DNA from: Escherichia phage MET-P1-301
Sequence record: PV700625
DNA length: 64,000 bases
Direction: 5' to 3' (one strand)
A model generated the notes under the pieces. The model was not told the origin of the DNA. It saw only the letters and a list, made by a program, of their open reading frames with translations, and did not search any database. A program made the translations under genes and the position numbers. Below are positions 28,557 to 44,800 of this stretch, piece by piece; within the stretch, counting starts at the first letter, position 1, and each line of letters begins with the position of its first letter.

Positions 28557-28889
28557 TTAAATCTTGAAAATTTGCTCATTCTGCCACATATCGTAAAACT
28601 TATCACTTACCTTTGTGACTGACGAAGTGTGCATACAATTGACGAACCATGATATATTACTATTCATAATTATTTCAAGCTGTTTTGTGACATCCACATT
28701 CATGTCTTCAACAACGTAATTACCTCGCATCTTGCAAACAACTCTTCCAAACAAGATTGCACTTCTGCCTCTTCGGTCGTCACAGTACATAACTGTGTCT
28801 CCGTGCTTAACATCTTGTCCGATACTATCAACACCTAATTTAGCACCTGAGATAATGTCATCATAAGATAACTTTTTTGCTTTAGACAC
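28557..28889 (-). CDS. hypothetical protein (110 aa)
   Basis: ORF. Confidence 0.4.
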   Translation of the reverse strand: MSKAKKLSYDDIISGAKLGVDSIGQDVKHGDTVMYCDDRRGRSAILFGRVVCKMRGNYVVEDMNVDVTKQLEIIMNSNISWFVNCMHTSSVTKVSDKFYDMWQNEQIFKI

Positions 28890-29214: not shown

Positions 29215-29851
29215 CCCCTTTTAACCAGCACTTCAGGTTATTAGCATCATAATTCAGTTTCGGGTATGAGGTTACATGGAACTGCTCACCATCATAGTAG
29301 ACAATATCTGCAATCCATAGTCCATTCTCTTTACAGAAATCTTTATCTGCTTTAGAGGTAATTGGATTAACTTCTACAAAACCATCTACACCCAAATCCT
29401 TTAAGCTACATACAATACCTTTGCAGATAACGCATGTCTCAGATACTACCACAAAAAGTTCTTGGCTTTCAAGCTCTACAATGTATTCACCAAGCTGTAC
29501 TTTAGGGAGATTTGATTGCTTCATAATCTTCCCATCGGCTGCACGAACAATCGCATACCACTCTTTACCATCAACTACTGACATTCTGATGATACACTCT
29601 TGACCAGTACGCTTCTCAATATCTGCAAGACGCTTTAAAGCTTCTTCATAGTCGTCTGTATACTTCAGGTCATTATTATGGCAAACAGCTTCCATAGCAC
29701 CATTATGGTCATGTTGTGACAGGTAAATCAAACCGTCAAGGACATATTGCAAATCTGCCTGAGCATCAAGTGTCTCAATGGGGTCTTTCTCTTCAATTGC
29801 TTTTACAAGCTCTTTTGCTTCTTCAAGCATACATAGAGATTGAGATTTCAA
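29186..29851 (-). CDS. hypothetical protein (221 aa)
   Basis: ORF. Confidence 0.45.
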   Translation of the reverse strand: MKSQSLCMLEEAKELVKAIEEKDPIETLDAQADLQYVLDGLIYLSQHDHNGAMEAVCHNNDLKYTDDYEEALKRLADIEKRTGQECIIRMSVVDGKEWYAIVRAADGKIMKQSNLPKVQLGEYIVELESQELFVVVSETCVICKGIVCSLKDLGVDGFVEVNPITSKADKDFCKENGLWIADIVYYDGEQFHVTSYPKLNYDANNLKCWLKGVGYNGFTEH

Positions 29852-29915
29852 AGATTCCCAATACTCATTACTGTAAGGTTGCTTTTGAGTGTTCCCACAA
29901 CGAAGATTCCAGTTT

Positions 29916-30179
29916 TTACTGATTCTCTTGAGTTAAACATTTGGACTCCTTAAAATATCTGTTAACCTTTAGCTCTCGTGTTTCAATATATTCCAGATGC
30001 TCACGTAGCTCTTGACGTTTAAGCATTAGGTGCTGCATTTGAGATTCAACAGCTTCAACTTCTCTAATTATTGACTCTCTGGCATTTGCAAGAATGCGCC
30101 CAAGTTCTTCAATCTTGCTGTCAACTTTTGCTACATGACTCACAGCTTTACTTTTGTTAAACATTTTATTCTCTCTCAA
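29916..30179 (-). CDS. hypothetical coiled-coil protein (87 aa)
   Basis: Charged helical sequence. Confidence 0.4.
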   Translation of the reverse strand: MRENKMFNKSKAVSHVAKVDSKIEELGRILANARESIIREVEAVESQMQHLMLKRQELREHLEYIETRELKVNRYFKESKCLTQENQ

Positions 30180-30398
30180 TAGTTATCAAGCACAATTTGC
30201 TTTCATTACCTTATGGATTCTTTTTTCAGCATCTTCATAAGTTTCTTTAGTAATAAACTTAATTGCTGCAATATTGGCATTGTAGAAGAGTCTGAGCTTA
30301 GAGTCAATCCTTTTGTCATTACATCGAATTTATGTTGAAGGTTTGCTTCACCATAAACTAGCCCACCTTTTGTGCAGTAGGTCTGGATAATGTAAAAG

Positions 30399-30680
30399 TC
30401 AAAAATTCTTTTCCAAAGCTCTCAATATCTTTTTAATATACTCAGAAGAAGTCTCATAAGTCATCCAATCGCTTTCCTTAGTGACTACCTTCTTCCGAGT
30501 CTTCCCAGCAACTTTTCTTTTGGTCACACTATTAAGCTGTTTCTTTCCGATATAATATTGCCCAGTCTTCTTACAGTGTACTAAATAGACAAAGCCAAAA
30601 TGTTTAGTGGGGTCAACTTTCCCACATAAAGATACCCAATGACCGTAGGTAGGGCAATTGCCAAATCCTTTAATCTTCAT
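30399..30680 (-). CDS. GIY-YIG homing endonuclease (catalytic domain), likely continuing to ~30200 after a frameshift at a TTTTT run
   Basis: GIY-YIG core FGFVYLVHCKKTGQYYIGKK; the next frame continues 30200-30398 as DFYIIQTYCTKGGLVYGEANLQHKF... Confidence 0.6.
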   Translation of the reverse strand: MKIKGFGNCPTYGHWVSLCGKVDPTKHFGFVYLVHCKKTGQYYIGKKQLNSVTKRKVAGKTRKKVVTKESDWMTYETSSEYIKKILRALEKNF

Positions 30681-30773
30681 TCATACACGGCTCCCAATTA
30701 TATTTCTTGAAAGAGAAATTATCTTTTGGATTTCTCTCTTGATAAGCTATCCAGAAATGCTGTTCCATTAGCT

Positions 30774-31709
30774 CTAACGGTGTCTTTGTAACAGTCTGTC
30801 CATCCCATGATACATAGGTGTAAGAGTCTTTTTAGCATAGAGTTCATAGATAGCATCAAGACACTCTTTGTAGGTCTCTTTACCATCTAAAGCATTCATC
30901 ACAGCTACTTTACCAGCACCTTTAAGTCCGAAGTAGTTGTCTGCATTATCTCCAGCAACAGCCTGATAGCACAAGAACTTAAAACCTACACCAACTGTTT
31001 TTGCAGCTTTTGGTTTTGATTTGATAGGACAATCCCAGATATCACCAACATTATTATCAGCAATAAAGATTAGTGGTGATTTTTCATAAGTCATATCAAT
31101 ACAATAAGTTCCTTCAGCTTGTCGAAGGTCTTTGTCAATACTCATAAGAGCAGCCTTCTTACCCATCTTTTCAGCTTTAGCAATTACGATTGAATCGGCT
31201 TCGAATCCTCCCTTTAAGAGTTTGAACTCTGGTCTTGACAGAAGGTATTCACGACAAGCGACTAAGTGTGTTGGTGTGACAGCATCTTTACGGTTACCTT
31301 GATATTGGTGCTCAAGACCTTTAATGTCTTTATGTTTATGCACACCTTTCTCTGTTAAATAACCTACCCAAGTTCTCTCTTTACCAACCACCTTAAGCCA
31401 TTCCTGAAGAACCTGTTGAGTAGCCATGATAGCTTCTTTCTCACTCTTAGCTTCTTTCCAAGTCTGTCTTTCCCATTCATCTTCATCAAATGTCAGTCCA
31501 AGTTCTTCCACAAGGATTCTCTGGTCTGCTAACCATCTTGCAGCATCTTTCGCATTATCAAATGGCTCAGATTCTTCTGCTGTGAGTTTATTGACATATT
31601 TATATTTTGCTTTCTCAACTACACAAGCACCTTTATAGGCAATACTGTCAGAGTCAATAAAGACATGTGTAACTGAATCGGGAAGCTTTGTTAATGTGTA
31701 CTTCTCCAT
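30774..31709 (-). CDS. 5'-3' exonuclease (T7 gp6-like)
   Basis: Acidic metal-site blocks (VFIDSDSIAY; IFIADNNVGD...AGDNADNYFGLKGAG) and placement in the replication module. Confidence 0.5.
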   Translation of the reverse strand: MEKYTLTKLPDSVTHVFIDSDSIAYKGACVVEKAKYKYVNKLTAEESEPFDNAKDAARWLADQRILVEELGLTFDEDEWERQTWKEAKSEKEAIMATQQVLQEWLKVVGKERTWVGYLTEKGVHKHKDIKGLEHQYQGNRKDAVTPTHLVACREYLLSRPEFKLLKGGFEADSIVIAKAEKMGKKAALMSIDKDLRQAEGTYCIDMTYEKSPLIFIADNNVGDIWDCPIKSKPKAAKTVGVGFKFLCYQAVAGDNADNYFGLKGAGKVAVMNALDGKETYKECLDAIYELYAKKTLTPMYHGMDRLLQRHR

Positions 31710-31770
31710 TATGGCTCTCCATATGAAAAAGCCCCATACTAAGTACAGGGCTTTAAAGTAACTTTAGAGA

Positions 31771-32628
31771 TTAGTCTTCTGTATCGAAGTCTTCATCTTC
31801 TTCGTCATCTGGGTCTGGCAAATCTTCATCATCACCATCATCAGAATCATTCGAAGATTTATGGTCTGTTGCGTCTTCTTCAGTGATTTCACCGTTATCT
31901 TCGACACCATCAAGACCAAGCATAGCCAGTTCGTCTTCATCCAGTTCAGGTTCACCGTTAGCACCGTTACCACCAGTGTAAGGTACAAGAGTATCAATGA
32001 TAAACTGTTCCTGAATAGGTTTTGTCAGAACATTGTTCTCAAAAGTGTAGAAGTGAGTAGAAAGAATCACACTACCAAAAGAACCATTACCAACTGCAAT
32101 ATCTGGATGAATTACATCATAGTTCTTATCATCTTCATGTTTATCAGATGCTTGAGCTTTGATTTTCTTCATCGGCTGCTTAACAGCTACACGCTTACCA
32201 TTTACTTCTTCAATAAGCATAACAGGGAATGACTGTTTAGCTGTCCACACAGCACCATCTTTATAAGCTGCTGCACGACTCACTTTCAAGATGTAGTAAG
32301 TGTCTGCTTCAAATGGTGGTTTGCAACCAAACTTCTCTTCGAAGTCGTCTGCATCAACTGCTTCAGTAGTAACTTTATCCCAACCTTCTGGGTTTTTCTT
32401 AGACTTAGTAAACTCTTTAAACAGTTTGTTACCGTCTTCTGCAAGAATTGATACACTGTAGTTACAGTCTTTTCCTGGGAATTTCTTATCAATAGACTTA
32501 CCTTTTCCCGGACGTGGTGAAGTGTTCAGGTAATAAAACCAGACATCTTTCAGCAGGTAACGCAGAGTTTGGCGTTCAGTACCATTGTACTTCTCTACCG
32601 GAGCTTTCATTTTAACAACTTTAGACAT
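31771..32628 (-). CDS. Single-stranded DNA-binding protein (T7 gp2.5-like) with acidic C-terminal tail
   Basis: 285 aa ending in a long Asp/Glu-rich tail; sits next to the primase-helicase. Confidence 0.5.
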   Translation of the reverse strand: MSKVVKMKAPVEKYNGTERQTLRYLLKDVWFYYLNTSPRPGKGKSIDKKFPGKDCNYSVSILAEDGNKLFKEFTKSKKNPEGWDKVTTEAVDADDFEEKFGCKPPFEADTYYILKVSRAAAYKDGAVWTAKQSFPVMLIEEVNGKRVAVKQPMKKIKAQASDKHEDDKNYDVIHPDIAVGNGSFGSVILSTHFYTFENNVLTKPIQEQFIIDTLVPYTGGNGANGEPELDEDELAMLGLDGVEDNGEITEEDATDHKSSNDSDDGDDEDLPDPDDEEDEDFDTED

Positions 32629-41742: not shown

Positions 41743-42817
41743 AGATGGTTCCTTCAACGTCTGGTCATGTGTTGCTGTAGGCGACAAAGTTATTACAACC
41801 TATGGTAAAGAAAATGGCAAGATGATGTTTGAAGAGTACACAGCAGAACCTAAAAACATCGGTAAAAAGAATGAGCGTAATGCTGAACAGCAAGCTCTCT
41901 TTGAAGTTGCTGCTAAGTATAAAAAGCAAGTTAACCGTAAAGGTTATGCTTACACAAAAGAGTCTGCACAGAATACTGAGAAGGTAGGTGTACAACTTGC
42001 TCATGATGCTGCAAAGGTTAGTCATGCAAAGTATCTGAAGTTCCCTGCTGATGCCCAACCAAAACTTGATGGTGTCCGTTGTAGAATTTCAAGAGATGCT
42101 GATTCAGTTAGTTTCACGGCTTATTCTCGTGAGAATACTGTTTACAACGTTCCAACAGAACTAATCCCAGATTTGCTTTTGTTGCTTAAATTACATCCAC
42201 AAGTTGAAGACTTTGATGGTGAGATTTATGCTCATGGTTGGGACTTAGAAGATATTGTATCTATGATTAAGAATGCTGACAATCCAGACCGTCACCTTCT
42301 TAAATTCTACTGGTATGATATCTGTGACAATTCAAAATCTTGGCCTGAGCGTCGTGAAGTTATTGATAACTCACCTATTGTTGAGCTTGGGGATACCTGT
42401 AGAGTTGTTCCTGTGCAGACTATCCGTGTAAATTCTTGGGAAGAGTTTGATGAAGCTCATGATAAGTGGGTTGAAGCTAAGTTTGAAGGTGCAATGTACC
42501 GCTCAATCTCTGAAGAATCTTTCTACGAGTGTGGTCACCGTTCATACTTCTTGATTAAGCACAAGAAGATGCACACTGAAGAGTTTAAAGTGACTGGTGT
42601 AAAGACCGATAAACGTGGTCATGGCAAGTTCGTTGTAGAGACTCTTCCTAACGTCTTTGTAGATGTCTCATGGAAGACCACTCATGAGAAGAAACAGTAT
42701 CTTGCTGAACACCCTGAAGAGTTTATCGGGAAGCCTTTAACGGTTCAGTTCCAGAAGATGACTCGTAAGGGGTCTTTGCAGTTCCCTGTCGGGCTAGTTA
42801 TTAGGGATTATGAATAG
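41681..42817 (+). CDS. ATP-dependent DNA ligase
   Basis: Adenylation motif I PKLDGVRC; ~370 aa. Alternative start at 41717. Confidence 0.8.
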   Translation: MLATLGITQRLKMTILYKQNKDGSFNVWSCVAVGDKVITTYGKENGKMMFEEYTAEPKNIGKKNERNAEQQALFEVAAKYKKQVNRKGYAYTKESAQNTEKVGVQLAHDAAKVSHAKYLKFPADAQPKLDGVRCRISRDADSVSFTAYSRENTVYNVPTELIPDLLLLLKLHPQVEDFDGEIYAHGWDLEDIVSMIKNADNPDRHLLKFYWYDICDNSKSWPERREVIDNSPIVELGDTCRVVPVQTIRVNSWEEFDEAHDKWVEAKFEGAMYRSISEESFYECGHRSYFLIKHKKMHTEEFKVTGVKTDKRGHGKFVVETLPNVFVDVSWKTTHEKKQYLAEHPEEFIGKPLTVQFQKMTRKGSLQFPVGLVIRDYE

Positions 42818-43004
42818 TGAAAGAGAGATTATCAAGTTTACCAATCCGGGTAGCTGTTGTCCGGTTCATGATAAGTATCCTAGTAATACTTACAAGAATA
42901 GGCGCTCTATCAAGAAGAGGTCACTCTTTATTAAGAAAGAGCACAGGCATGTGAGGCGGGTTGTTAAGCAAAATCTTCATAAAACTTTATTAGAAAGTTG
43001 TTGA

Positions 43005-43994
<990 letters not shown>

Positions 43995-43996
43995 TT

Positions 43997-44437
43997 ATGA
44001 ATACAAAAGCATTAGCAGCAAAGTTTAGTTACGGTGACACTGTATCACACTCTGAGATGGATACCTTCTTAGGTATTGTGAAGCCAACTTATCAAGGTGA
44101 CATTGTTAAGTACGAAGATGAAATGAAGGCTTATGCACTTACACGTCTAAACCGACTTGAGAAGTTTATTGAGAAGCTTCTTAAAGAAGAGAAGATTTAT
44201 CTGGTTGCTTCAATGGGTGTTGGTTATCGTGTGGTTGAACCTAAGCATCAAGCAACTATTGCAAAACGTAAAATGTCTGGTAAGATTGGTCGTGCTTTAA
44301 AGCAAGCCACCCAAGCAATTGAGAATGTGAATACTATGGCACTTAGTCATCAAGAACGTTCACGACTGATTGAACAGCAAAACCATTTAGCTGCTATGAA
44401 AGCTAACATTAACAAGCAACGCAGAAAACCTTTCTAA
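43997..44437 (+). CDS. hypothetical protein (146 aa) inside repeat-bracketed cassette
   Basis: ORF; basic C-terminus. Confidence 0.45.
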   Translation: MNTKALAAKFSYGDTVSHSEMDTFLGIVKPTYQGDIVKYEDEMKAYALTRLNRLEKFIEKLLKEEKIYLVASMGVGYRVVEPKHQATIAKRKMSGKIGRALKQATQAIENVNTMALSHQERSRLIEQQNHLAAMKANINKQRRKPF

Positions 44438-44446
44438 GTTGACTAG

Positions 44447-44472
44447 GTAGCCTCTTCGGAGGCTCCTTTTTA
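44447..44472 (+). terminator. Intrinsic terminator
   Basis: AGCCTCttcgGAGGCT (UUCG tetraloop) followed by CCTTTTT. Confidence 0.7.
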
Positions 44473-44475
44473 AAA

Positions 44476-44800
44476 GGTCTTTAAGAGGGTCTTTTAATAA
44501 GGTGGGGTGGGGTGTGGTGAGGTTTGGTTTGGTGTAGTCAGGTAAGGTATGGGTAGTTAGTCTCAGCTACATTAAAATGAGACTTACCTTTTAAAAGGTC
44601 TTTAAGAGGGTCTTTTAATAAGGTGCTGTATGGTGGGGTAAGGTAGGGTTAGGCGAGGTCAGGTGAGGTTTGGTATGGAAGGATGGCAGTAGCCTTATAA
44701 AAATCTGCCAAATAAGCTATAAAATCTGTTGACAAGTCAGGTGTTATAGCTTATTTTTATACCCAATGTAATACAAAATTTAATATAACTTTGAGGTCAT
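44476..44800. repeat. Second copy of the G/T-rich tracts plus ~80-bp conserved unit (44550-44630), followed by a promoter-like TTGACA
   Basis: Same unit as 43146-43226 with a partial third copy at 44468-44505; TTGACA-N17-TATTTT precedes the next gene. Confidence 0.6.

Follow-up and report, generated by a model that had tools for sequence, protein, structure and literature searches.

What is the small GIY-YIG nuclease gene of a Felix O1-like phage for: is it a homing endonuclease, still able to spread among related genomes, or a settled part of the phage's own DNA metabolism? The question is raised by 64,000 nucleotides (nt) of DNA from Escherichia phage MET-P1-301 (sequence record PV700625), a stretch that we call the window and whose minus strand carries, just after a 5′-3′ exonuclease gene, an apparently frameshifted gene with a GIY-YIG core. 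A model that saw only the letters and their open reading frames (ORFs) had taken this gene for a free-standing homing endonuclease, and we refer to its account as the sequence-only reading. When a 3-kb stretch around the gene was compared with phage records, 258 of them matched, and the best matches, at ~97% identity, were Felix O1-like myoviruses (Felixounavirus, Ounavirinae) of Escherichia, Salmonella and Shigella; judged by these matches, the window is a Felix O1-like phage genome. The explanation that fits best overall is that the gene has been mis-assembled in this record, and that it is probably an intact core gene for a SegE-type, domain-only nuclease of DNA metabolism, not a currently mobile homing endonuclease. 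The gene and the parts of it that matter for this argument are as follows.

30186..30680, minus strand: predicted GIY-YIG nuclease gene, orthologue of Felix O1 ORF107 and tootiki_118, with its ATG at 30680 and its TGA at 30186-30188
30540..30593, minus strand: GIY...YIG core FVYLVHCKKTGQYYIGKK, residues 30-47, holding the invariant Tyr32, Tyr43, Gly45 and Lys47
30347..30349, minus strand: codon of Glu112, the metal-binding catalytic Glu of the superfamily, equivalent to I-TevI Glu75, invariant in 147 members and placed in helix 105-118 of the model
30279..30281, minus strand: codon of Asn135 (motif FYN), the conserved superfamily Asn, equivalent to I-TevI Asn90, invariant in 147 members

As it stands in the window the gene is 495 nt long; with three lost bases put back, as justified below, it has 498 nt and encodes a protein of 165 amino acids (aa). 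The repaired protein matches the Pfam family PF19835 (SegE_GIY-YIG) with 86.5 bits (E=2e-24, against a curated gathering threshold of 25 bits), residues 22-139 aligning with profile positions 11-123 of 123. The catalytic core noticed in the sequence-only reading is present even before repair: FVYLVHCKKTGQYYIGKK is encoded within a 93-aa ORF at 30399-30680 on the minus strand, and the translation of that ORF as it stands matches PF19835 with 56.9 bits (E=3e-15), far beyond chance. A sequence search of solved structures gave no significant match, and the hhalign profile alignment to the catalytic domain of I-TevI (PDB 1ln0; 13–14% sequence identity) is weak, with a probability of 16.5% and an unreliable course in the region of helix alpha1, so that the assignment of the fold rests on the comparison of structures. 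The structure used was an AlphaFold2 model of an 85%-identical orthologue, not of the repaired window protein itself, with a predicted local distance difference test score (pLDDT) of 95.8 and a predicted template modelling score (pTM) of 0.89. Among known structures it matches the I-TevI catalytic domain best (Foldseek rank 1, probability 0.98, target-normalised template modelling score 0.67), and it has the fold of the superfamily, a three-stranded sheet with the GIY and YIG strands and helices at its flanks. The sequence-only reading had offered to stand or fall by such a prediction, and on this point it stands. In an alignment of 147 diverse family members the residues G29, Y32, Y43, G45, K47, W72, Y75, S78, E112 and N135 are invariant, among them the whole catalytic set of the superfamily (the Tyr of GIY, Y32; the Tyr of YIG, Y43; the metal-binding Glu, E112; the Asn, N135), all of it encoded in the window. 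We are therefore as good as certain that the protein is a GIY-YIG nuclease, an activity predicted from its sequence and from the model.

The build of the protein is that of a bare catalytic domain. Apart from PF19835, no Pfam family matched above its cut-off, and so no DNA-binding module was found; ARD and Phospholip_A2_3, which appeared at E<=1, lay far below theirs. The model adds to the common fold an extra N-terminal strand with a conserved GHW, a Lys/Arg-rich beta-hairpin (50-69) in the place of helix alpha1, and a single C-terminal helix. An N-terminal zinc knuckle (C9, H14, C19) was considered and rejected, since the cysteines are missing outside Felixounavirus-like sequences and conservation is limited to H14 and W15. 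When 1.84 billion representative proteins were searched with a profile, 2,271 relatives were returned at E<=0.001. Among the best 150 of these, 58 (~40%) have 100-180 aa and consist of the domain only, and 77 have 220-400 aa; in all ten long relatives that were scanned (230-390 aa) the domain is followed by NUMOD3, NUMOD1 or a helix-turn-helix, the classic modular build of a homing endonuclease. I-TevI, which is intron-encoded, is likewise tethered to a zinc finger, NUMOD and helix-turn-helix DNA-binding domain, unlike the Ounavirinae protein, which has no such module.

On the minus strand the order is primase/helicase, a conserved 285-aa protein, 5′-3′ exonuclease, GIY-YIG gene, small ORF, MazG-like pyrophosphatase, two small ORFs and NrdA, the immediate neighbours being these two.

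30670..31709, minus strand: 5′-3′ exonuclease gene, T7 gene 6-like, broken by the loss of one base in the T5 run at 30829-30833
29916..30164, minus strand: small conserved ORF, 82 aa from its ATG, directly downstream of the GIY-YIG gene, with the MazG-like pyrophosphatase gene next; every relative examined has this order

Once the exonuclease's own deletion at 30829 is repaired, its gene ends at 30670 and thus overlaps the ATG of the GIY-YIG gene (30680) by 11 nt, 30670-30680 (ATGAATGAAGATTAA), whilst on the other side the next ORF begins 21 nt past the GIY-YIG stop. The intergenic slot that the sequence-only reading had allotted to the gene disappears with this repair. Promoter-like sites were not enriched in 29800-31900 (4 found vs 5.5 expected), and the terminator-like matches in a scan of the same interval lie inside coding sequence.

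A comparison of related genomes for presence or absence of the gene, suggested along with the claim of a homing endonuclease, brought no polymorphism to light. The GIY-YIG gene was matched in 297 phage records (blastn), nearly all of them Ounavirinae by organism label, and the exonuclease in 303 (tblastn), with identical counts for the two genes under each label (Escherichia 119, Salmonella 80, Erwinia 29, Shigella 23, ‘Felixounavirus’ 14, Citrobacter 11, and so on). Wherever the locus was examined the exonuclease adjoins the GIY-YIG gene, and the latter keeps its place in Felixounavirus, Suspvirus, Kolesnikvirus (Erwinia phage phiEa21-4) and Yersinia phage P778. The ORF was intact and in the same position at every one of 20 loci inspected, which is not the sporadic pattern of a Seg-type homing endonuclease, and an ORF of 165-166 aa was intact in all 13 complete Ounavirinae loci from IMG/VR. 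The orthologues Felix O1 ORF107 (NP_944980), tootiki_118 (QHR75891) and that of phage TP1 (YP_009606873) are 92-98% identical in aa sequence, equally long and likewise placed between exonuclease and MazG; unlike the copy in the window, they are intact. The ratio of non-synonymous to synonymous change (dN/dS) is 0.04-0.07 in pairwise comparisons where synonymous sites are unsaturated, similar to that of the exonuclease, and in the deepest comparisons the GIY-YIG protein has diverged less than the exonuclease (dN 0.33 vs 0.43, identity 59% vs 55%). From these comparisons we are confident that the gene belongs to the core of these genomes and is not sporadic; it is vertically inherited in the Ounavirinae.

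Several records that carry this sequence have surprising labels. NCBI lists, under Methanobrevibacter gottschalkii, a 93-aa ‘partial’ copy of the protein with the Felix O1 type of allele; the 88,424-bp contig on which it lies probably came into an archaeal assembly as contamination by a Felix O1-like phage. Separately, GU169904 (‘Staphylococcus phage SA1’), OK283618 (‘Listeria phage LPML1’) and two ‘Campylobacter’ records contain Felixounavirus sequence, 69-97% identical to the window, and look mis-assigned or chimeric.

Domain-only homologues occur in unrelated phages as well. In roseophage DSS3_VP1 (Naomviridae) a 44%-identical homologue of this kind follows and overlaps a 5′-3′ exonuclease gene, the pair lying between the DNA polymerase and primase/helicase genes. 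On 41-kb TARA contigs of T7-like phages the order is primase/helicase, DNA polymerase A, SSB, exonuclease, a 51-aa ORF and the homologue, with ribonucleotide reductase ~1.2 kb (three small ORFs) further on, and the pairing of exonuclease and domain-only homologue was seen again in a Logan contig. The retrieved stretches in which an exonuclease gene is followed by a domain-only, SegE-like GIY-YIG gene are these.

L007, 3070-4462: exonuclease, then GIY-YIG gene, in DSS3_VP1
L012, 3081-4414: the same arrangement in a TARA contig
L011, 576-2583: the same arrangement

The recurrence of the pair outside the Ounavirinae hints that the two genes may form a functional unit. Approximately 400 cyanomyophage records also carry the homologue, at 30-37% identity; in cyanomyophage S-SM1 it lies shortly downstream of nrdA-nrdB. 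Searching with a 12-sequence alignment added 66 loci from IMG/VR, which form eight clusters at 60% identity, and the representative loci scanned for these eight environmental clusters carry genes for DNA polymerase A, ribonucleotide reductase, a nucleoside deoxyribosyltransferase-like protein or an exonuclease.

On balance, the sequence and setting of the gene lead us to favour a housekeeping role in DNA metabolism rather than homing. The domain-only SegE branch (phrog_447) could quite possibly have arisen as the catalytic domain of a homing endonuclease, domesticated and then fixed by unrelated phage lineages (all Ounavirinae, most T4-like cyanophages, marine T7-like phages and Naomviridae) as a housekeeping nuclease of replication and nucleotide salvage, often alongside a 5′-3′ exonuclease and with the basic hairpin replacing the lost DNA-binding domain. 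That the nuclease works in a specific partnership with the 5′-3′ exonuclease is a more tentative suggestion. The GIY-YIG protein would make Mg2+-dependent nicks or breaks with little sequence specificity, the built-in basic hairpin serving for contact with DNA, and these nicks or breaks would give the adjoining 5′-3′ exonuclease its points of entry. The outcome might be a breakdown of host DNA that feeds the phage's large set of nucleotide-salvage genes, or else the processing of branched intermediates of replication or recombination. Such a division of labour would be like that of T4 endonuclease II (EndoII, DenA) or T7 gp3 with an exonuclease; T7 gp3 acts together with the exonuclease gp6. 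EndoII is a domain-only GIY-YIG enzyme that starts the degradation of host DNA (PMC1564403), although it belongs to a different branch of the superfamily, has no sequence-level match to the Ounavirinae protein and is not its closest relation.

A number of observations weigh against a housekeeping nuclease that works with the exonuclease. When the exonuclease was sought in all ORFs of the 66 environmental loci with a purpose-built profile (four iterations), it lay directly upstream of the homologue in only 5 of them and no more than 3 kb away in another 6; we therefore dropped the idea of a universal gene pair and call the link recurrent. The helix of I-TevI that bears Arg27 and His31 is replaced in our protein by the hairpin 50-69, so that Arg27 has no clear counterpart, Lys47 being invariant and Arg62 at least 90% conserved; T4 SegE, a proven active enzyme, likewise lacks the Arg-bearing helix alpha1. 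A nuclease of low specificity would also have to spare the phage's own genome. EndoII spares T4 DNA by means of its modified cytosine, but no such discrimination is known in Felix O1-like phages, whose DNA is to our knowledge unmodified. In favour of the housekeeping reading, the RefSeq annotation of phage TP1, which is free of the HNH gene discussed below, names no other endonuclease or resolvase, but this is weak evidence because most of the ORFs there are hypothetical. In the literature we found no experimental work, biochemical or genetic, on this ORF or on domain-only SegE-like proteins. Finally, presence in every relative is also what would be expected of a homing endonuclease that had swept to fixation.

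This last possibility is the main rival explanation. An active, free-standing Seg-type homing endonuclease, once fixed in the Ounavirinae, might still cut a specific site in related phages that are without the gene or carry a sensitive allele, leading to gene conversion and marker exclusion around the exonuclease gene. The protein shares its Pfam family, PF19835, with T4 SegE (36.5 bits), a proven site-specific homing endonuclease (PMC2988022, Table 1), and hhalign relates SegE to our family profile with a probability of 96%; the two have in common the GIY...YIGK core, a Y-x-(G/T)-S-S motif, the region of the catalytic Glu and the (F/Y)YN motif. The Ounavirinae protein retains its catalytic residues, the longer members of the family combine nuclease and NUMOD, and the locus is, as shown below, a hotspot of recombination. 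Moreover, T4 seg genes can be kept because they embed promoters for neighbouring genes (PMC2988022). Nevertheless, we consider it unlikely that the gene is of this kind. T4 SegE is a protein of 205 aa with ~110 C-terminal residues for DNA binding, whereas the Ounavirinae protein, at 165 aa, has a single helix after its catalytic domain, together with an N-terminal GHW strand and a 19-residue basic hairpin that are both absent from SegE. Among T-even phages SegE occurs sporadically, and it favours its own inheritance (PMC2988022), whereas the Ounavirinae gene is found in all relatives; over four genera whose synonymous sites have become saturated it has kept its position and a low dN/dS, although a selfish gene left without targets would be expected to decay. 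Similarly fixed, domain-only homologues in cyanomyophages and marine T7-like phages point the same way. The T4 seg genes are sporadic, intergenic and modular (PMC2988022); a gene with no presence/absence polymorphism, no DNA-binding module, an overlapping start and strong constraint is their opposite. The reading as a ‘free-standing homing endonuclease’ is right by half: the protein is a GIY-YIG nuclease, but homing is improbable.

The mosaicism at this locus, which the sequence-only reading had attributed to the GIY-YIG gene, is real but follows a different gene. In the annotation of two GenBank records, those of Felix O1 (ORF106) and VpaE1, an extra HNH endonuclease gene stands exactly between the exonuclease and GIY-YIG genes. 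Among the 13 IMG/VR loci, the gap between these two genes is 469-478 nt in 7, the right size for the HNH gene, and in the other 6 they overlap by 7 nt according to the ORF caller, as in the window.

L008, 3001-3525: HNH gene, Felix O1 ORF106
L004, 3501-4016: HNH gene of VpaE1
30500..31200 of the window: divergent tract, with 73-86% identity to the HNH-bearing Felix O1 and VpaE1 against 95-100% on its flanks, centred on the HNH insertion point at ~30673-30709

Against tootiki, which has no HNH gene and carries the same GIY-YIG gene, identity across the tract stays at 95-99%. The tract thus appears only in comparison with HNH-bearing relatives, and conversion is associated with the HNH gene and not with the presence of the GIY-YIG gene, a further point against a homing role for the latter. 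The exonuclease gene (30700-31709) falls into two allele classes among relatives, with 117 records at >=90% identity and 140 at 80-90%, and the GIY-YIG gene is at >=90% identity in 209 records, which points to a recombination boundary near the junction of the two genes. As far as the sequences go, the variable element at the locus is the HNH gene, of which the window carries the empty allele, and the HNH gene with its ~700-bp drop in identity is the expected signature of a genuinely mobile free-standing endonuclease. The empty allele of the window may hold its target site. The HNH gene of the relatives, as the true mobile element here, offers a clean pair of occupied and empty sites for studies of homing in Felix O1-like phages. 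Elsewhere in the window, at 42813-44662, ~1.8 kb after the DNA ligase gene is without counterpart in phage Ro111lw (~0.3 kb there); this variable accessory region has no obvious endonuclease, and in position and size its ORFs (200 and 146 aa) resemble ordinary accessory genes.

A second alternative keeps the gene in DNA metabolism and gives it another substrate. The protein might be a structure-specific nuclease that resolves Holliday junctions or cuts flaps, like the GIY-YIG enzyme SLX1 or, in function, T7 endonuclease I, debranching DNA before packaging instead of attacking host DNA. Its site in the replication module, beside the primase/helicase, the conserved 285-aa protein (of unassigned function) and a FEN-like exonuclease, would suit such a role, SLX1 is among the structural matches, and the gene belongs to the core and is strongly constrained. 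The absence of an annotated resolvase from TP1 would leave a place for it, yet an unrecognised resolvase could sit among the many hypothetical ORFs, and our analysis produced no evidence of a partner or of dimerisation. We regard this reading as rather improbable.

In the window as read the gene is not whole. Alignment to three relatives located three single-base deletions, given here in the order in which the minus-strand frame meets them.

30430..30434: T5 run (T6 in relatives), the first deletion, which makes a premature stop at 30399-30401
30401..30405: A5 run (A6 in relatives; T5 on the coding strand), the second deletion and the ‘T5 run’ of the sequence-only reading
30311..30314: T4 run (T5 in relatives), the third deletion, after which the original frame is regained

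Because the net loss is 3 nt, the last part of the gene is back in its original frame and ends at the TGA at 30186-30188; restoring the three bases yields the 165-aa protein, 97.6% identical to tootiki_118. It had been proposed that the frame continues after a frameshift at a T5 run, and it does continue, by way of three deletions and not one, in what appears to be an artefact. Over 40 kb aligned to Ro111lw, ~31 one-base deletions against 2 insertions were counted in A/T runs (4-6 long in the relative), besides a few isolated one-base losses, and the rate of loss in A/T runs is ~1 per 1.3 kb of window. Mapped onto the genes of the relative, one-base losses frameshift the DNA polymerase (three sites), NrdD, NrdB, thymidylate synthase (ThyA), dNMP kinase, rIIA, NAMPT, PRPP synthetase, MazG and the exonuclease, examples being the following.

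24348: NrdD
25237 and 25942: NrdB
29913: MazG
30829: exonuclease
35421, 35549 and 35648: dNMP kinase
38845, 38913 and 39925: DNA polymerase
47979: ThyA

Since similar losses break so many essential genes, and no viable phage could bear them all, there is very little doubt, on the sequence comparisons, that the frameshifts of the GIY-YIG gene are a sequencing or assembly artefact, the under-calling of A/T homopolymers. Taken at face value, the three frame-breaking deletions would make the gene a decaying pseudogene in this one phage, but this is very improbable: the same kind of homopolymer loss strikes the DNA polymerase, both ribonucleotide reductases, thymidylate synthase and the exonuclease, the bases missing from the GIY-YIG gene add up to exactly 3 nt and were lost from A/T runs without exception, and the repaired codons are under purifying selection, their differences from relatives being almost all synonymous (dN/dS 0.07 vs tootiki) with no sign of decay. 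Orthologues were unbroken in every relative read. No match to the 93-aa ORF came up in an exact look-up, nor did exact-pattern scans of IMG/VR and GTDB genomes find a stretch spanning two of the deletions. With bases lost from A/T runs at such a rate, any seeming frameshift or pseudogene in the window should be distrusted and treated as an assembly error until proven otherwise. Of a different nature is the 3-nt in-frame length difference from relatives at 28653-28665, in the 110-aa ORF just downstream of nrdA, which looks like genuine variation.

The weakest alternative, that the protein is an NAD synthetase, as RefSeq and PHROGs label it, draws on its best PHROG match (phrog_447, labelled ‘NAD synthetase’, E=1e-47) and on the name in many RefSeq records, and can be set aside with virtual certainty, since the fold is GIY-YIG, PF19835 is the family model, homing endonucleases come next among the PHROG matches, no NAD-synthase family in Pfam or NCBIfam matches the repaired protein at E<=1, and 165 aa are far too few for an NAD synthetase. 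The label of phrog_447 explains the name in RefSeq, where it stands in NC_041979, NC_005282, NC_028935, NC_015282 and others; the error has reached hundreds of Ounavirinae and cyanophage records. The GenBank orthologues listed above go by ‘GIY-YIG homing endonuclease’, ‘NAD synthetase’, ‘HNH homing endonuclease’ or hypothetical protein; ‘HNH homing endonuclease’, used in some records, is wrong for a protein of GIY-YIG fold, and several GenBank records already have ‘GIY-YIG homing endonuclease’. The gene is real, ordinary for its phage group, and already annotated in many GenBank records.

In conclusion, a family present in ~800 phage records and widely mislabelled ‘NAD synthetase’ is in reality, by the predictions given here, one of GIY-YIG nucleases. 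That a homing-type catalytic domain, stripped of its DNA-binding module, should persist under strong selection among the core genes of several unrelated groups of phages is of modest interest. The interest that remains lies in the function of this widely conserved and widely mislabelled family of domain-only nucleases, for which Felix O1 is an easy phage to work with.

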